Part shown: positions 2,812-52,637 of the stretch, in pieces | How the letters are laid out: every line of letters begins with the position of its first letter | Numbering within the stretch: position 1 is the first letter of the stretch | Assembly (NCBI RefSeq): GCF_001677475.2 | Contig: NZ_CP015229.1 | Length of the DNA: 64,000 nucleotides | Reading direction: 5' to 3' (one strand) | Origin: Escherichia coli | Lineage (GTDB): Bacteria > Pseudomonadota > Gammaproteobacteria > Enterobacterales > Enterobacteriaceae | The notes under the pieces: generated by a model | What the model was told of the DNA's origin: nothing | Databases searched by the model: none | What the model saw: only the letters and a program-made list of their open reading frames with translations | Translations under genes and position numbers: made by a program

Positions 2812-3300
<489 letters not shown>

Positions 3301-3332: not shown

Positions 3333-4487
3333 ATGCTGCTGGTTCTGGTGCTGATTGGTCTTAATATGCGACCACTGCTCACCTCCGTCGGGCCACTGCT
3401 ACCGCAATTGCGCCAGGCAAGCGGAATGAGCTTTAGCGTGGCTGCCCTGTTGACCGCTCTGCCGGTGGTTACCATGGGCGGGCTGGCGCTGGCCGGAAGC
3501 TGGCTTCATCAGCATGTCAGCGAACGTCGCAGCGTCGCCATCAGTTTGTTACTGATTGCCGTCGGTGCATTGATGCGTGAGCTTTACCCCCAAAGTGCGC
3601 TGCTGCTTAGCAGCGCACTGCTTGGTGGAGTGGGGATCGGCATCATTCAGGCGGTGATGCCTTCGGTAATTAAGCGGCGGTTTCAGCACCGTACGCCACT
3701 GGTGATGGGGCTGTGGTCCGCGGCTCTGATGGGCGGCGGTGGACTTGGTGCCGCCATTACGCCCTGGTTAGTTCAACATAGCGAAACCTGGTATCAAACA
3801 CTCGCCTGGTGGGGGCTGCCTGCCGTTGTTGCGCTCTTTGCCTGGTGGTGGCAAAGCGCCCGCGAGGTCGCCTCTTCTCACAAGACAACAACCACTCCGG
3901 TTCGCGTGGTATTTACTCCCCGCGCGTGGACGCTGGGTGTTTACTTCGGTCTGATTAACGGCGGTTACGCCAGCCTGATTGCCTGGTTACCCGCTTTCTA
4001 TATTGAGATTGGTGCCAGCGCGCAGTACAGCGGTTCCTTGCTGGCATTGATGACGCTTGGGCAAGCCGCAGGAGCTATGCTGATGCCTGCTATGGCTCGC
4101 CATCAGGATCGGCGCAAACTTTTGATGCTGGCGCTGGCGTTACAACTGGTGGGTTTCTGCGGCTTTATCTGGCTGCCGCTGCAATTGCCGGTATTGTGGG
4201 CGATGGTGTGTGGGTTAGGTCTGGGCGGCGCATTTCCGCTCTGTTTGCTGCTGGCGCTCGATCACTCTGCTCAACCCGCTATTGCTGGCAAACTGGTGGC
4301 GTTTATGCAGGGGATCGGTTTTATCATCGCCGGGCTTGCCCCGTGGTTTTCTGGTGTGCTGCGTAGTATCAGCGGCAATTACCTGATGGACTGGGCGTTT
4401 CATGTGCTGTGCGTCGTTGGGCTGATGATCATAACCCTGCGTTTTGCACCAGCACGTTTTCCGCAACTGTGGGTCAAAGAGGCATGA
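3333..4487 (+). CDS. cynX: MFS cyanate transporter
   Basis: Multi-span hydrophobic MFS-like protein; start chosen at internal Met giving 384 aa; longest ORF begins at 3306. Confidence 0.88.
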   Translation: MLLVLVLIGLNMRPLLTSVGPLLPQLRQASGMSFSVAALLTALPVVTMGGLALAGSWLHQHVSERRSVAISLLLIAVGALMRELYPQSALLLSSALLGGVGIGIIQAVMPSVIKRRFQHRTPLVMGLWSAALMGGGGLGAAITPWLVQHSETWYQTLAWWGLPAVVALFAWWWQSAREVASSHKTTTTPVRVVFTPRAWTLGVYFGLINGGYASLIAWLPAFYIEIGASAQYSGSLLALMTLGQAAGAMLMPAMARHQDRRKLLMLALALQLVGFCGFIWLPLQLPVLWAMVCGLGLGGAFPLCLLLALDHSAQPAIAGKLVAFMQGIGFIIAGLAPWFSGVLRSISGNYLMDWAFHVLCVVGLMIITLRFAPARFPQLWVKEA

Positions 4488-43963: not shown

Positions 43964-45079
43964 ATGTTCCCAAAAATAATGAATGATGAAAACTTTTTCA
44001 AAAAAGCGGCGGCGCATGGGGAGGAACCTCCTTTAACTCCTCAAAACGAACATCAGCGATCCGGGCTGCGCTTCGCCCGTCGCGTCAGACTACCCCGCGC
44101 GGTTGGCCTGGCTGGCATGTTCTTACCGATTGCTTCAACACTGGTTTCGCACCCGCCGCCGGGCTGGTGGTGGCTGGTGTTGGTCGGCTGGGCGTTCGTC
44201 TGGCCGCATTTAGCCTGGCAGATAGCGAGCAGGGCCGTCGATCCGCTTAGCCGGGAAATTTACAACTTAAAAACCGATGCAGTATTAGCGGGAATGTGGG
44301 TAGGCGTAATGGGCGTAAACGTACTGCCTTCCACCGCGATGTTGATGATTATGTGTCTGAATTTGATGGGGGCTGGCGGCCCCCGTCTGTTTGTCGCGGG
44401 TCTGGTGTTGATGGTGGTTTCCTGCCTTGTCACCCTCGAGCTGACGGGCATTACCGTGTCGTTCAATAGTGCGCCGCTGGAATGGTGGCTCTCCCTTCCC
44501 ATTATTGTCATTTATCCTCTGCTGTTTGGCTGGGTCAGCTACCAGACGGCAACCAAACTGGCGGAACATAAACGCAGGTTGCAGGTCATGAGTACCCGCG
44601 ACGGTATGACGGGCGTGTATAACCGACGTCATTGGGAAACTATGTTACGCAATGAATTTGATAACTGTCGGCGGCATAATCGCGATGCGACATTACTGAT
44701 TATCGATATCGACCATTTCAAGAGCATCAACGATACCTGGGGCCATGATGTAGGCGATGAAGCGATTGTGGCGCTTACCCGACAGTTACAAATAACCCTG
44801 CGCGGTAGCGATGTGATTGGTCGGTTTGGCGGCGATGAGTTTGCGGTAATCATGTCCGGTACACCAGCTGAGAGCGCCATTACCGCCATGTTACGGGTGC
44901 ATGAAGGGCTAAACACGTTACGTTTGCCGAATACGCCACAGGTAACATTACGGATTAGTGTGGGGGTTGCGCCGCTGAACCCACAAATGAGTCACTATCG
45001 TGAGTGGTTGAAATCGGCAGATTTGGCGCTTTACAAAGCAAAGAAAGCCGGACGTAACCGCACCGAAGTGGCGGCCTGA
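43964..45079 (+). CDS. dgcC: diguanylate cyclase with N-terminal MASE2 membrane domain
   Basis: 371-aa ORF with membrane N-terminal half and GGDEF active site (RFGGDEFAV). Confidence 0.94.
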   Translation: MFPKIMNDENFFKKAAAHGEEPPLTPQNEHQRSGLRFARRVRLPRAVGLAGMFLPIASTLVSHPPPGWWWLVLVGWAFVWPHLAWQIASRAVDPLSREIYNLKTDAVLAGMWVGVMGVNVLPSTAMLMIMCLNLMGAGGPRLFVAGLVLMVVSCLVTLELTGITVSFNSAPLEWWLSLPIIVIYPLLFGWVSYQTATKLAEHKRRLQVMSTRDGMTGVYNRRHWETMLRNEFDNCRRHNRDATLLIIDIDHFKSINDTWGHDVGDEAIVALTRQLQITLRGSDVIGRFGGDEFAVIMSGTPAESAITAMLRVHEGLNTLRLPNTPQVTLRISVGVAPLNPQMSHYREWLKSADLALYKAKKAGRNRTEVAA

Positions 45080-45095
45080 CGTCCGGCAAAAGTCA

Positions 45096-45905
45096 TCAGG
45101 ATTTACTGAGTTTTTCTGATTTTTCCATACACTTCGTCATCGCTTCGATCACTGCGGCACGGAAGCCTTTCTCTTCCAGTACGCGTACCGCCTCAATGGT
45201 GGTGCCTCCCGGTGAGCAGACCATATCTTTCAGTGCCCCCGGATGTTCTCCCGTTTCCAGCACCATTTTTGCGGAACCCATTACCGCCTGAGCGGCAAAT
45301 TTATACGCCTGGGCGCGTGGCATCCCGCCCAGCACGGCAGCGTCGGCCATCGCTTCGATAAACATAAAGACGTAGGCTGGGGAAGAACCGCTCACACCGA
45401 CCACCGGGTGGATCATCGGCTCAGCAATTACTTCCGCTTCGCCAAAGCAGCGGAAAATATTCAGCACATCAGCGGTATCTTCTGGGGTTACCAGCGCGTT
45501 TGGCGTTACGGAGGTCATCCCGGCATTAACCAGCGCGGGAGTGTTCGGCATGGCGCGGATAATTTTCCGGTCATGGCCCAGCGCACGGGCAAGCTGGTCG
45601 AGCGTGACACCTGCTGCAATAGAAACGACCAGAGAGTCTTTATTCAGGCTGGAGGTGATTTCGCTAAGCACTTTAATCATGATGCCTGGTTTAACGGCGG
45701 CAAAAATGATGTCGGCGATTTGCGCCACTTCTTGCGCCGATTCTGCGGCGTTGATGCCGAACTGGTCATGCAGGGCGGCGACTTTATCCGGGGAGGGGGT
45801 ATATACCCAGATTTGCCCTGGAAGCACCTGACCGCTGGCAATCAGACCGCCGAGAATGGCTTTTCCCATATTGCCGCAGCCAATAAAACCGATTTTCTTT
45901 TCCAT
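45096..45905 (-). CDS. proC: pyrroline-5-carboxylate reductase
   Basis: Start chosen at [20 protein letters not shown] (NADPH-binding) giving 269 aa. Confidence 0.95.
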
Positions 45906-46024
45906 TGCCTCACTCCTGCCGTGAAATTCATTGTTTTGATAATCGCTGGCAGAAGCATAAACAGAACTATGCCGGAAGGCAAAAGCGCGACACAATAGAG
46001 AATTACCCAACAAAGGATGACTTT

Positions 46025-46483
46025 ATGACAATTTGGGTGGATGCCGACGCGTGTCCCAATGTAATTAAAGAGATTTTGTATCGCGCGGCTGAACGTATGC
46101 AGATGCCGCTGGTACTGGTAGCAAACCAGAGTTTACGCGTACCGCCTTCGCGATTTATTCGAACGCTGCGCGTCGCGGCAGGTTTCGACGTTGCCGATAA
46201 CGAAATTGTCCGGCAGTGTGAAGCTGGCGATTTGGTGATCACCGCAGATATTCCTTTGGCTGCTGAAGCCATCGAGAAAGGCGCGGCGGCGCTTAATCCT
46301 CGTGGCGAACGTTACACGCCAGCGACCATTCGTGAGCGCCTGACGATGCGCGATTTTATGGATACCTTACGTGCCAGTGGGATCCAGACCGGAGGACCAG
46401 ATAGTCTTTCACAACGTGACCGCCAGGCCTTTGCTGCGGAGCTGGATAAGTGGTGGCTGGAAGTGCAACGTAGTCTTGGCTAA
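46025..46483 (+). CDS. yaiI: UPF0178 family protein
   Basis: Start chosen at [16 protein letters not shown] giving 152 aa. Confidence 0.88.
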
Positions 46484-46484
46484 A

Positions 46485-46606
46485 TGTAATTTATTATTTA
46501 CACTTCATTCTTGAATATTTATTGGTATAGTAAGGGATGTATTGAGATTTTCACTTTAAGTGGAATTTTTTCTTTACAATCGAAATTGTACTAGTTTGAT
46601 GGTATG
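46485..46606 (+). promoter_or_regulatory. aroL regulatory region: TyrR boxes at 46485..46502 (TGTAATTTATTATTTACA) and 46561..46578 (TGGAATTTTTTCTTTACA), TrpR-like site near 46586..46606
   Basis: Matches to TyrR consensus TGTAAA-N6-TTTACA and a GTACTAGTT half-site; candidate -10 tatgat follows. Confidence 0.75.
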
Positions 46607-46665
46607 ATCGCTATTCTCATGATACCGGCTTTCGCCGCATTGCGACCTATTGGGGAAAACCCACG

Positions 46666-47190
46666 ATGACACAACCTCTTTTTCTGATCGGGCCTCGGGG
46701 CTGTGGTAAAACAACGGTCGGAATGGCCCTTGCCGATTCGCTTAACCGTCGATTTGTCGATACCGACCAGTGGTTGCAATCACAGCTCAATATGACGGTC
46801 GCGGAGATCGTCGAAAGGGAAGAGTGGGCGGGATTCCGCGCCAGAGAAACGGCGGCGTTGGAAGCGGTAACTGCGCCATCCACCGTTATCGCCACGGGCG
46901 GCGGCATTATCCTGACGGAATTTAATCGTCACTTTATGCAAAATAACGGGATCGTGGTTTATTTGTGTGCGCCAGTATCAGTCCTGGTTAACCGACTGCA
47001 AGCTGCACCGGAAGAAGATTTACGGCCAACCTTAACGGGAAAACCGCTGAGCGAAGAAGTTAAGGAAGTGCTGGAAGAACGCGATGCGCTATATCGCGAA
47101 GTTGCGCATATTATCATCGACGCAACAAACGAACCCAGCCAGGTGATTTCTGAAATTCGCAGCGCCCTGGCACAGACGATCAATTGTTGA
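46666..47190 (+). CDS. aroL: shikimate kinase II
   Basis: 174-aa ORF with P-loop GPRGCGKTT. Confidence 0.96.
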
Positions 47191-47230
47191 TTTTCGAGCG
47201 CCTATACTTAACGTTCATCCCGTGAAATAA

Positions 47231-47431
<201 letters not shown>

Positions 47432-47688
47432 CCGCATCAGACTGCTCGGAAGGGATTCTGAGTGCCACCACAAGGGATCTGCGTCACATTTTTCACAATT
47501 CATGTTTTTCAAATAATTAGAATATTAAACAATAACAATCCATTACTGGAATCATTTGGAATCTTTACATTATGCCGTGCAGGTCTGCTGCTACGCTTTT
47601 TGTCATTTGTAGCACAGGTAAGTGTCAGCAGTGGTGCTTAGCGCTTGCCCGGTAATTAACGACGAAATAAAAGTAAGGTGGAAGAACA

Positions 47689-48366
47689 ATGAGTGCGTCG
47701 TTGGCGATCCTGACCATCGGCATTGTACCTATGCAGGAAGTTTTGCCGCTCCTGACAGAATACATTGACGAAGATAATATTTCCCATCATAGCCTGCTGG
47801 GGAAGTTAAGCCGCGAAGAAGTGATGACGGAGTACGCGCCAGAAGCAGGCGAAGACACAATTCTCACATTATTAAATGACAACCAGCTGGCCCATGTTTC
47901 GCGTCGTAAAGTGGAACGAGACCTGCAAGGTGTGGTTGAAGTGCTCGATAATCAGGGTTATGACGTCATTTTATTAATGAGTACAGCAAACATTAGTAGT
48001 ATGACTGCGCGTAATACGATCTTTCTTGAACCGTCGCGAATATTGCCTCCGCTGGTTTCTTCTATTGTTGAAGATCATCAGGTGGGGGTTATCGTTCCGG
48101 TTGAGGAGATGCTGCCCGTTCAGGCGCAAAAATGGCAAATTTTGCAGAAATCGCCGGTATTTTCATTGGGTAACCCCATTCATGATTCAGAACAAAAAAT
48201 CATTGATGCCGGGAAAGAATTACTGGCAAAAGGGGCTGATGTCATCATGCTGGATTGTTTAGGATTTCACCAACGTCATCGCGATTTACTGCAAAAACAG
48301 CTCGATGTTCCTGTCTTGCTCTCTAACGTATTGATTGCACGGCTGGCTGCGGAATTACTGGTGTAA
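47689..48366 (+). CDS. aroM: AroM family protein
   Basis: 225-aa ORF with RBS (ggtggaagaacaATG). Confidence 0.9.
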
Positions 48367-48437
48367 TTTTGCGTGACAGCCAGCGCCTCTGGCCCCTATA
48401 GTGAAGTAGATGTTCAACTACCAGACAGGGCCAGTTT

Positions 48438-48722
48438 ATGCTTCAAAGTAATGAGTACTTTTCAGGCAAAGTGAAATCGATCGGCTTTTCCAGCAGCAGC
48501 ACTGGTCGCGCCAGCGTGGGTGTTATGGTTGAAGGTGAATACACCTTCAGCACCGCTGAGCCTGAAGAGATGACGGTAATCAGTGGCGCGCTGAATGTGT
48601 TACTGCCTGACGCGACCGACTGGCAAGTGTATGAAGCCGGTTCGGTGTTTAATGTTCCCGGTCACAGCGAGTTTCATCTGCAAGTTGCCGAACCCACCTC
48701 TTATCTGTGCCGCTATCTGTAA
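48438..48722 (+). CDS. ppnP: pyrimidine/purine nucleoside phosphorylase (cupin, DUF1255)
   Basis: 94-aa [20 protein letters not shown]... Confidence 0.92.
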
Positions 48723-48929
48723 TTCCTCGCCTTCCCCTTGAACGGGAGGGCATTTTTCTGAAATGTCCTCTCTTTAACCCATAATAATATTTCCTTTGCT
48801 GGGATTTTTTCGATTTCCGATATATTCATAATTCATCAAGGTTGATATAAATATCAGCGAAGATCTCCAGATATTGTTGCGGAACTGGCTACGATAAAAG
48901 ATAAATCAGATGATGAATGGTGGCGTGCA

Positions 48930-49208
48930 TTGCTGCAAAGTCGCAATGATCATTTGCGCCAAACGGCATTGCGCAACGCACATACCCCGGTGTTGTTAAC
49001 GGCATTGACTGAGTCTCAGGATCGGTCGCTGGCTATTAATAATCCACAGCTGGCTGCCGATGTGAAAACGGTGTGGCTAAAAGAGGAGCCATCATTACTT
49101 TTATTTGTCGATCAACCCGCTCTTCCGCAGTTACGGGATTTAGTGAAAAACGGGGCAACGCGGAAAATTCGCAGTGAAGCGCGTCACCGGCTTGAGGAAA
49201 AACAATGA
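48930..49208 (+). pseudogene. short ORF with TTG start and no convincing RBS; possibly a frameshifted remnant (ykiA-like)
   Basis: 92-aa frame begins at TTG; an ATGATG at 48910 is in a different frame and stops after about 29 codons. Confidence 0.35.
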
Positions 49209-49304
49209 CACAACGCCCCTGGAGCAAGTTACAGCGTAAAACGCATAATATTGCTGCGCTAAAAATTATTGCCCGCCGTAGCGAATAATTATATTCCTGG
49301 TGTG

Positions 49305-49350
49305 GCTTCGTACGCCGGATAAGACGCGGCAGGCGTCGCATCCGGCATTA
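49305..49350. repeat. REP element downstream of rdgC
   Basis: tacgccggataagacgcggcaggcgtcgcatccggcatt motif. Confidence 0.75.
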
Positions 49351-49365
49351 AAGGAAAATCAGCAA

Positions 49366-50277
49366 TTAACGTTGTGCTTCGCCACCTAATCCTTCGATCA
49401 GGTTTTGAATTAACGCTGCCAGTTCACCAGTCATCAGGATGAAATCGGCATCAAAACGCTGGGCGAAATCTTCACGGTCGATATCTTCGTTTTGATCGCG
49501 CAGCTCGTCGCAGAACTTCAGACGCTTGAGCGAACCATCGTCGCACATCACAAACTGAATGCGCTGCTGCCAGTCGAGCGCCAGTTTAGTCACCACTTTT
49601 CCGGCTTCAATGTGATTAGTGATCTCTTCGCTGGTCAGATCTTGTTTCTTCGCGCGGATCACGCCGCCATCTTCCAGCAACGATTTCAGCTCGGCTTCAT
49701 CAAGCAGCTGGAAGCCCTGTGCCGCACTACCGGAACGTACCCATTCGGTCAGCGTCAGTTCAATCGGGTTTTCCATGCTCAATGGTACAACCGGTAACGA
49801 CCCCAGGCTTTTACGCAGCAGTGCCAGCGTATCTTCCGCTTTTTTGGCACTGGCGCAGTCCACCATAATCAAACCATTAACCGTGTCGATCCACATCATT
49901 GTCTGGCTAAAACGGCTGAAAGCACGCGGCAGCAGAGAGTGCAGCACTTCGTCTTTCAGCGAATCTTTTTCGGTTTTCTTCAGCTTACGCGCCTGTTCCG
50001 CTTCCAGTTTGGCGATTTTCGCTTCCAGCGCCTGTTTAATCACCGGAGACGGGAGGATTTTTTCTTCTTTGCGTGCGCAGATAACAATTTGACCATTGGC
50101 AACGTGCGTTAACGCATCGCTGTGCGATCCCATCGGAGGAACCCAGCCCATCTTCGCCATGTCCTGGCTGCCGCATGGGGTAAATGCCATCGAGGCTAGC
50201 TGTTTTTCCATCTCTTCTGCACGCAGCGAAATCTCGCGGCTAAGACGGTAAACCATTAAATTTTTGAACCACAGCAT
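49366..50277 (-). CDS. rdgC: recombination-associated nucleoid protein
   Basis: Start chosen at [16 protein letters not shown] giving 303 aa. Confidence 0.94.
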
Positions 50278-50401
50278 GATAATTTCCACGGCCTTGTCGT
50301 TAAATTTAGCGGGCATGATAACGAATTGTCGGCGGCCTTGCATTGCCAATCCGGTTGTCCGTCTCTACGCTATTGATATTGAAAAAAATAAGGAGAGTAC
50401 C

Positions 50402-51310
50402 GTGCGTATAGGTATCGATTTAGGCGGCACCAAAACTGAAGTGATTGCACTGGGCGATGCAGGGGAGCAGTTGTACCGCTATCGTCTGCCCACGCCGCGT
50501 GATGATTACCAGCAGACTATTGAAACGATCGCCACGTTGGTTGATATGGCGGAGCAGGCGACAGGGCAGCGCGGAACGGTAGGTATGGGCATTCCAGGTT
50601 CGATTTCGCCCTACACCGGTGTGGTGAAGAATGCCAATTCAACCTGGCTCAACGGTCAGCCATTCGATAAAGACTTAAGCGCGAGGTTGCAGCGGGAAGT
50701 GCGGCTGGCAAATGACGCCAACTGTCTGGCGGTTTCAGAAGCAGTAGATGGCGCGGCAGCAGGAGCGCAGACGGTATTTGCCGTGATTATCGGCACGGGA
50801 TGCGGCGCGGGCGTGGCATTCAATGGGCGGGCGCATATCGGCGGCAATGGTACGGCAGGCGAGTGGGGACACAATCCGCTACCGTGGATGGACGAAGACG
50901 AACTGCGTTATCGCGAGGAAGTCCCTTGTTATTGCGGTAAACAAGGTTGTATTGAAACCTTTATTTCGGGCACGGGATTTGCGACGGATTATCGTCGTTT
51001 GAGCGGACATGCGCTGAAAGGCAGTGAAATTATCAGCCTGGTTGAAGAAAGCGATCCGGTAGCGGAACTGGCATTGCGTCGCTACGAGCTGCGGCTGGCA
51101 AAATCGCTGGCACATGTCGTGAATATTCTCGATCCGGATGTGATTGTCCTGGGGGGCGGGATGAGCAATGTAGACCGTTTATATCAAACGGTTCCGCAGT
51201 TGATTAAACAATTTGTCTTCGGCGGCGAATGTGAAACGCCGGTGCGTAAGGCGAAGCACGGTGATTCCAGCGGCGTACGCGGCGCTGCGTGGTTATGGCC
51301 ACAAGAGTAA
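50402..51310 (+). CDS. mak: fructokinase/manno(fructo)kinase (ROK family)
   Basis: GTG start at [14 protein letters not shown] (ROK ATP-binding N-terminus) giving 302 aa; upstream part of the longest ORF overlaps rdgC. Confidence 0.9.
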
Positions 51311-51330
51311 AAAACCCAGGCAATTGGCGC

Positions 51331-51430
51331 ATCATGCCTGATGCGACGCTTGCCGCGTCTTATCAGGCCTACAAAATGTGCCAGAACCGCGTAGGGCGGA
51401 TAAGGCGTTCACGCCGCATCCGGCAATAAG
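51331..51430. repeat. REP/BIME elements between mak and araJ
   Basis: gcctgatgcgacgcttgccgcgtcttatcaggcctac and gcggataaggcgttcacgccgcatccggc units. Confidence 0.85.
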
Positions 51431-51452
51431 TAATTAGCACCGAGACTATAAC

Positions 51453-52637
51453 CTACCCCAGTGGTTTCGCCAGCACCGGAGTATCCGCCGCTTGCTGGCG
51501 CTTATAGCGACCATACAGCAGCAATGACGACATAGCAGCAAACGAAAGCAGGGCGGCAGGCAGCGCCACGTAATTATATGTCAGCCCCAGCGTCAGCATC
51601 ATACCACCGCAATATGCGCCGACGGCGCTACCGAGGTTAAACGCTATTTGCCCACCTGCGGCACCTAATAACTCTCCGCCTTTGGCGTTTTGCAGTAACA
51701 ATATTTGTAGAGGTGCTGAAAGGGCAAATAATCCCGCGCAACAAATAAATGCAAAAATAAGCGACGTTGTTTTCATGCCGCCGAAGAAAAAGAGCATCAG
51801 CAGTGCCAGGACAATGATAAAGTCAGTCACTGCTGCAATGCGCAGTGGTGAATAACGTCCTGAAATCCTGCCACTTAGCATATTTCCCAGCACCATCCCT
51901 AGCCCAACTAACATCATAATAAAGGTCATCGCCGTTTCCGAAAAACCGGAAATAAACATCATGTATGGCTTTACGTAGCTGAACCAGGCAAACACACCTG
52001 CGTTGCCAAACATGGTGGCGGCGAAAATTAACCACGGGGCCGGGCTGCGTAAAAAGTGAAATTGTTCGCGCAGCTTTCCTTTCGTCTCGTCGCGAATATC
52101 CGGCACCCAAAAATAGACCGATGCCATCACCGCAATATTAAAAACAGCGATCAATAAAAAGGTGTAACGCCAGCTAAATTCCTGACTTAAATACGTTCCC
52201 AGCGGAATGCCCAGCAAATTGGCGACTGTCATCCCGGAAACCATCCCCGCCACGGCGGCGGTGACTTTTCCGGGTTTGATAATTTTCGATAACACGATCG
52301 CGCCGACGCCAAAAAATGCGCCATGCGGAAAGCCGGAAACCAGGCGACCAATGGCAAGCATCAGGTAAGACGAAGAGAGCGTGAACATGGCGTTACCAAT
52401 GACGCACAACGCCACCAGAAACAACAAGATATGTTTGAGTGAGTAGCGGCTGGAAAAGAGAGCGATGATTGGCGCACCGACCACCACCCCCAGCGCATAA
52501 TACGAGATCATATGCCCGGCGGCAGGAATCGAAATTCCTACGTTATGCGCCAGCTCCGTGAGCACGCCCATAATGCCAAATTCGGCCATCCCCAAACCAA
52601 ACGTGCCCAGAGCCAAAGATAAAATGACTTTTTTCAT
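51453..52637 (-). CDS. araJ: MFS transporter (arabinose-inducible)
   Basis: Start chosen at MKKVILSLALGTFGLG giving 394 aa. Confidence 0.9.
   Translation of the reverse strand: MKKVILSLALGTFGLGMAEFGIMGVLTELAHNVGISIPAAGHMISYYALGVVVGAPIIALFSSRYSLKHILLFLVALCVIGNAMFTLSSSYLMLAIGRLVSGFPHGAFFGVGAIVLSKIIKPGKVTAAVAGMVSGMTVANLLGIPLGTYLSQEFSWRYTFLLIAVFNIAVMASVYFWVPDIRDETKGKLREQFHFLRSPAPWLIFAATMFGNAGVFAWFSYVKPYMMFISGFSETAMTFIMMLVGLGMVLGNMLSGRISGRYSPLRIAAVTDFIIVLALLMLFFFGGMKTTSLIFAFICCAGLFALSAPLQILLLQNAKGGELLGAAGGQIAFNLGSAVGAYCGGMMLTLGLTYNYVALPAALLSFAAMSSLLLYGRYKRQQAADTPVLAKPLG

Follow-up and report, generated by a model that had tools for sequence, protein, structure and literature searches.

The short TTG-initiated frame between ppnP and rdgC of Escherichia coli belongs to the ykiA pseudogene, very probably the tail of a 759-residue protein gene whose front was lost by deletion

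We analysed a stretch of 64,000 nt from the E. coli contig NZ_CP015229.1 (hereafter the window), in which a short frame opening with TTG lies between ppnP and rdgC. The feature is very probably the pseudogene ykiA, that is, the C-terminal 113 codons of a gene for a 759-residue protein whose front was lost by deletion. In the scheme that we propose, the ancestral locus would have held a gene for an exported protein (with a signal peptide, a beta-helix and an LRV/HEAT-like alpha-solenoid), followed by a translationally coupled gene of the SF0329 family. A single deletion of ~1.94 kb, which began one base ahead of the ATG and reached codon 646, would then have brought the AT-rich promoter region of that gene right up to codon 647, leaving no start codon. 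The remaining frame would be open only because it is young, and the TTG at 48930, the first canonical start in that frame, would be an internal Leu codon, not a real initiation site. Finally, a later deletion of 372 nt between 10-nt direct repeats would have cut the SF0329 gene down to the 27-aa ykiD. The parts of the locus are listed in Table 1.

Table 1. Features at the ppnP–rdgC site, in window coordinates
Feature	Position	Strand	Details and evidence
ppnP, intact upstream neighbour, locus anchor	48438..48722	+	ORF list; annotation; dN/dS ≤ 0.1
ppnP intrinsic terminator	48729..48757	+	8-bp GC-rich stem, then ATTTTTCTGA; conserved in all aligned strains
AT-rich 5′ flank of the ancestral gene, with the ykiA promoter region	48752..48864	+	retained intact; collinear with O157
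Deletion 1 junction, filler CTCCA	48865..48869	+	between GAAGAT (ancestral −7..−2) and GATATT (codons 647–648)
ykiA pseudogene	48870..49208	+	112 codons + stop; PGAP/RefSeq, alignment to O157 protein, blastn, Pfam
29-aa ATG (ATGATG) ORF	48910..48999	+	other frame; ORF list
92-aa ORF	48930..49208	+	TTG start; ORF list
ykiD, 27 aa	49205..49288	+	annotation; alignment to intact SF0329 gene
Deletion 2 junction	49227..49236	+	surviving copy of the imperfect direct repeat AGTTAC(A/G)GCG

An earlier note, made from the letters of the window, had described the TTG frame as a decayed gene. Both frames on which it relied were recovered in the ORF list, namely the 92-aa ORF as described and, starting at an ATGATG 20 bp upstream of the TTG, a frame of 29 codons in a different phase. 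The decay was borne out by annotation and comparison alike: RefSeq/PGAP carries the pseudogene ykiA (b0392) in K-12 and labels the locus in other strains as 'DUF2773 domain-containing protein; incomplete; missing N-terminus', with ykiD (27 aa) coming next, and an intact 759-aa homologue occupies the same ppnP–rdgC position in O157:H7 and other strains. The 92-aa ORF matched the Pfam family DUF2773 (PF10971) with E = 1.4e-37 and 128.1 bits against a cut-off of 25, the match spanning the whole model (1–81 of 81; residues 13–92 of the ORF), and the corresponding NCBIfam search gave no match. The same 92-aa translation is deposited in GenBank as ANO87607.1 ('hypothetical protein GJ11_02380 [Escherichia coli]'). 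An intact homologue of 92 aa sharing this start was not found, and the ORF is not an orphan either. A TTG start, a weak ribosome binding site and shortness are what would be expected of a spurious ORF in non-coding DNA, without gene ancestry; however, the full-length DUF2773 match, the identity of 84% to the C-terminus of the 759-aa protein and relatives reaching down to 21–35% identity leave this reading with a negligible probability, and we regard it as refuted by the Pfam match together with the homology to the 759-aa protein.

The intact arrangement shows what the window has lost. At the same site, O157:H7 carries a gene of 2,280 nt encoding a 759-aa DUF2773 protein (WP_120795310.1), overlapped at an ATGA by a 450-nt gene for an 'SF0329 family protein'. 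The same gene pair is found between ppnP and rdgC in strain LHM10-1, with an SF0329 protein of 151 aa (456 nt), and Escherichia sp. E4930 has the 759-aa gene alone at this site, with no SF0329 gene called. The intact pair is present at ≥80% coverage in 444 of 5,426 complete E. coli genomes, O157:H7 included. Compared with the O157:H7 protein, the window remnant corresponds to residues 647–759 minus one codon near residue 687, and it retains the same upstream flank and the same ATGA-coupled downstream start. Along with codons 1–646, the window has lost the start codon, the regions for signal peptide and beta-helix, and the greater part of the solenoid; 124 codons of the SF0329 gene are gone too. 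What the remnant still encodes are the final alpha-solenoid repeats (helices 646–758 of the AF2 model).

Alignment of the window to the O157 locus (L003) by blastn yielded three collinear pieces. The first pairs 48400–48864 with L003:97–561 (97.2% identity) and ends one base before the ATG at 563; the second pairs 48870–49236 with L003:2501–2870 (96.2%), and the third 49227–49450 with L003:3233–3457. Between the first two, ~1.94 kb holding the start codon and codons 1–646 is absent from the window, and the junction can be read directly as GAAGAT-CTCCA-GATATT. For the CTCCA filler, only matches of 6–7 nt were found in the intact locus, indistinguishable from chance. A tblastn search of the whole 64-kb window with the 759-aa protein found only residues ~636–759, and the homology stops at 48870, with no continuation upstream in any frame.

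These alignments also decide against a frameshift, the mechanism that the earlier note had proposed. According to this idea, a gene started by the ATG at 48910 was broken so that its halves now lie in different frames, as the 29-codon frame opening 20 nt upstream and overlapping the 92-aa ORF might indeed suggest. The homology, however, runs in one frame only, from 48870 to 49205, and the ancestral protein continues without a break across this spot in the same frame as the 92-aa ORF (…KSDDEWWRALLQ…), with no indel relative to the intact alleles between 48870 and 48930. The DNA upstream of 48870 matches the ancestral 5′ flank and not coding sequence, and the 29-aa frame has no match in Pfam or NCBIfam. 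The ATGATG is the +1 reading of the ancestral Asp660-Asp661-Glu662 (KSDDEWW), which is conserved in the frame of the 92-aa ORF; the 29-aa frame is a chance frame within former coding sequence. Comparison with an intact homologue, suggested as a way of locating the frameshift, thus revealed the ~1.94-kb deletion instead. We consider a frameshift origin extremely improbable, refuted as it is by the alignment to the intact 759-aa gene.

The description of the upstream region (48723..48929) as AT-rich and non-coding held in its first part, given a GC content of 0.30–0.34 across 48750–48899 versus ~0.5 to either side, and had to be amended in its second. Positions 48870–48929 are former coding sequence and 48729–48751 form a GC-rich hairpin with a T run, so that only 48752–48864 is truly intergenic. 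The frame of the 92-aa ORF stays open back to 48846.

The deletion appears to have happened once. Nine alleles with the deletion were examined, seven remnants and two with SF0329 only, and in every one the junction starts with GAAGAT-CTCCA; it is shared with K-12, 2014C-3338, EC20, clone D i2, 14EC029, S. flexneri, NADC1036 and GF50, and only the bases just after it differ slightly among alleles. This common junction start points to one ancestral deletion event. Altogether, four allelic states were found: intact, deletion 1, deletions 1 and 2 combined, and deletion 1 with loss of the remnant. S. flexneri, where deletion 1 is accompanied by an intact 151-aa SF0329 gene, represents the intermediate state. 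NADC1036 and GF50 underwent an alternative second deletion from the same junction, in which the rest of the ykiA remnant was lost and SF0329 was kept, although frameshifted by an extra C. The locus thus shows stepwise decay from a single old deletion.

Further details were noticed at this site. In the third allelic type (L012:734–1357 and L004:1523–2146), which has the deletion 1 junction and no ykiA remnant, the sequence …GCGGAACTG abuts the SF0329 ATG, and SF0329 is itself frameshifted through an extra C in CGCCCCCTGG. In CUWW10 (L013:581–1562), an IS1-associated rearrangement joins DNA from the iraP/phoA side to ykiD, and in the stretch beside ykiD neither aroM nor ppnP nor the ykiA remnant is annotated. 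Since the remnant is not annotated there, it appears to have been lost from CUWW10 and to be dispensable. Judged by its deletion in the NADC1036 type and in CUWW10, the ykiA remnant is dispensable. In strain EC0026B, an IS1A is inserted in the region.

The ancestor belongs to a family of large proteins. A HMMER search of 1.84 billion representatives returned 169 relatives at E ≤ 1e-3, of which ~40 are full-length (735–820 aa) and share 21–35% identity. An AlphaFold model of the 759-aa protein (pLDDT 90.8, pTM 0.79) consists of a signal-peptide-like N-terminal helix, a beta-helix at ~68–176 and an alpha-solenoid at 240–759. Matches to the Pfam families LRV_2, LRV or HEAT were obtained for 8–10 of 30 family members, and the E. 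coli protein falls below the cut-off of every repeat family (HEAT, 15.5 bits versus 23.5). Foldseek matched the model to designed armadillo, PP2A-A and importin structures with TM-scores ≤0.28, low values which make the likeness to ARM/HEAT solenoids a generic one that carries no functional assignment. With its predicted alpha-solenoid, the 759-aa protein may resemble LRV, HEAT and armadillo proteins, and it adds a signal peptide and an N-terminal beta-helix that these do not have. Judging from this predicted architecture, the ancestor may have been exported and have acted as a scaffold or in binding. Neither the 759-aa protein nor the SF0329 protein had a significant match in sequence searches of the PDB or any match in PHROGs or PADLOC, and no conserved gene neighbours were found for the distant relatives of the 759-aa protein. 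The SF0329 partner of the 759-aa gene was seen only in E. coli and Shigella.

The Pfam model DUF2773 covers only the last 81 residues of these ~760-aa proteins, and it looks as if the truncated E. coli fragment had served as the basis of the model. The family is in effect defined by a piece of a pseudogene, and DUF2773 is better regarded as the C-terminal cap in a family of exported beta-helix/solenoid proteins of ~760 aa. Many database 'proteins' of 66–102 aa are remnant ORFs, and the 92–93-aa 'hypothetical proteins' at this locus (e.g. ANO87607.1) are gene-caller artefacts in which an internal Leu codon was taken as the start. As for initiation of the ancestral gene, its start region (L003:543–565) has almost no Shine–Dalgarno (SD) complementarity (−1.0 kcal/mol) and sits just downstream of a TATAAAT-like box; together, these two features suggest that the mRNA leader may be very short or absent.

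The downstream partner has decayed as well. An intact SF0329 gene encodes 149–151 aa (450–456 nt), and ykiD consists of its codons 1–11 joined to the last 16 (residues 1–11 and 136–151 of 151). The intervening deletion 2 measures 372 nt, is in frame and lies between imperfect 10-nt direct repeats, AGTTAC(A/G)GCG. The ykiD start overlaps the ykiA stop in an ATGA and is preceded by a GAGGA SD motif. The 27-aa sequence encoded in the window is identical to YkiD (b4732), which has been detected in K-12 by chromosomal epitope tagging (PMC6001520). Rather than a free-standing small gene, ykiD is a chimera in which both ends of a gene for a 151-aa SF0329-family protein are joined. Searches of Pfam and NCBIfam with the 27-aa YkiD gave no match, including to SF0329 (PF25753 / NF049912); judging from the alignment, YkiD is derived from the SF0329 family without being a member of it. 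That it is experimentally detected and yet a deletion chimera calls for caution in small-protein catalogues.

The YkiD ending, KIIARRSE, is the ancestral one. Near the 3′ end of SF0329 in O157:H7 (L003 ~3266–3288) there is a run of A6, compared with A5 in LHM10-1, S. flexneri and the window; the longer run changes the last residues from KIIARRSE to KNYCPP, a terminal frameshift in a gene that is nonetheless annotated as intact. Outside this locus, members of the SF0329 family (PF25753) from Prevotellaceae, Bradymonadia, Paenibacillus, Zoogloeaceae and Leminorella share 56–68% identity although these span distant phyla. The SF0329 loci inspected (L009:2878–3333; L017, L018 and L019, with the gene at 4001–4483) place the gene in arrays of small unannotated genes, next to Imm10, WGR+DUF4240, DUF2314 and an integrase, and these surroundings resemble orphan-immunity islands. 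A Foldseek search with the SF0329 AF2 model (pLDDT 89) gave no PDB match at E ≤ 1e-3.

We then come to whether the remnant is expressed and translated. In K-12, the ppnP–ykiA intergenic fragment is a promoter activated by BglJ-RcsB, with a transcription start site (TSS) mapped by 5′-RACE and a BglJ-RcsB site centred 79 bp upstream of the TSS and verified by mutagenesis; that study treated ykiA as a 113-aa protein of unknown function (PMC3950696). Consensus scanning gave a sole promoter-like match, at 48758–48785, which we take as a candidate. We infer that the remnant is still transcribed from the promoter that survived upstream of it, and that translation of ykiD begins with the help of the SD sequence left over from SF0329 (GAGGA, −6.2 kcal/mol). 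The ykiA remnant would then make no functional protein and probably serves as a vestigial transcribed leader of ykiD. Given the regulated promoter and a stop codon overlapping the translated ykiD, initiation at the TTG, or at a non-canonical codon, may give some translation.

The TTG itself is a poor candidate for an initiation site. The earlier remark that it lacks a clear ribosome binding site is fair, as the 20 nt upstream offer only GGUGG, located 6 nt from the TTG, with a predicted duplex of −4.9 kcal/mol with the 16S 3′ end versus −6.2 for ykiD and −7.7 for aroM, against a background in which ~21% of random 20-mers from the window reach −4.0 kcal/mol or lower. In addition, the TTG at 48930 is the codon of the ancestral Leu667, a nearly invariant position of the family.

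We also considered whether the fragment could have been domesticated, that is, whether a cytoplasmic helical-repeat protein of 92–113 aa is made from the TTG or a non-canonical start and has acquired a function, perhaps together with YkiD. All seven remnant alleles sampled have kept an open frame, and the one indel among them preserves it, as would be expected of a functional protein; however, the remnants diverge by ≤5%, which makes the open frame weak evidence either way. The BglJ-RcsB-regulated promoter, the ATGA overlap with the translated YkiD and the GGUGG 6 nt before the TTG would likewise be compatible with domestication, but the SD is weak, the TTG corresponds to a Leu codon inside the ancestral gene and the remnant has been lost without trace in other lineages. 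Furthermore, with the signal peptide gone, the fragment cannot reach the ancestral compartment.

Substitution patterns speak against domestication as well. Between O157:H7 and Escherichia sp. E4930, dN/dS is 0.12 over the whole intact gene and 0.24 within its final 113 codons, and the intact 759-aa gene is under purifying selection. Pairwise dN/dS values between remnants were too noisy (≤15 differences per pair), and a pooled test was used instead. Codon states found only in remnants are nonsynonymous in 12 cases and synonymous in one, a ratio that fits ω = 1 (P = 0.15) and rejects ω = 0.25 (P = 5e-4) in a small sample of 13 codon states with only two intact reference alleles. Constraint on the remnant is relaxed relative to the intact gene, and the pattern fits neutral drift. 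Taken together, we consider a domesticated mini-protein very unlikely and a decayed remnant by far the better reading. There is similarly only a slim chance that the 92-aa helical-repeat fragment and the 27-aa chimeric peptide constitute a newly born, envelope-stress-induced small-protein operon carried by ~84% of E. coli, which the deletion would have created by fusing the BglJ-RcsB promoter to an open 113-codon frame ending in the ATGA overlap with YkiD.

As a pseudogene, ykiA is a known one and ordinary in kind. Our analysis confirms its annotation and corrects the mechanism from frameshift to deletion, which is of little import for biology at large; only three points are mildly new, namely the reconstructed series of deletions, where YkiD came from and the finding that DUF2773 was modelled on the tail of a much larger protein. 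For the K-12 regulon, the published BglJ-RcsB target 'gene' ykiA comes down to only a promoter before a remnant, and the real regulated cargo, the 759-aa protein plus SF0329, is present only in strains such as O157:H7. Another of the ten BglJ-RcsB target loci studied, molR, is listed as 'disrupted in K12' (PMC3950696, Table 1). With ykiA and molR, two of the ten loci are broken, so that part of the K-12 regulon drives remnants.

A megablast of 48700–49400 located the region in 5,424 of the 5,426 complete E. coli genomes, flanked in every case by ppnP and rdgC, and 4,541 of the 5,426 have the arrangement of the window. Relative to K-12 ykiA, the window has the same ppnP-ykiA-ykiD-rdgC locus, deletion junction and reading frame, and the 701-nt region is ~96% identical to that of K-12-like strains. 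The window allele differs in lacking one codon near residue 687 and in three private changes, T692A, S733P and T741N, and it is unique in the collections searched (a singleton cluster). For positions 44000–52000 of the window, the best match among the 5,426 complete RefSeq genomes reached only 98.5% over 8 kb. Between ykiD and rdgC, at 49307–49348, there is a palindromic REP-like element of ~42 nt, and the O157 locus has an inverted copy of it, 88% identical, in the mak–araJ interval; an 8-kb query spanning this element matches a median of 12 places per genome.
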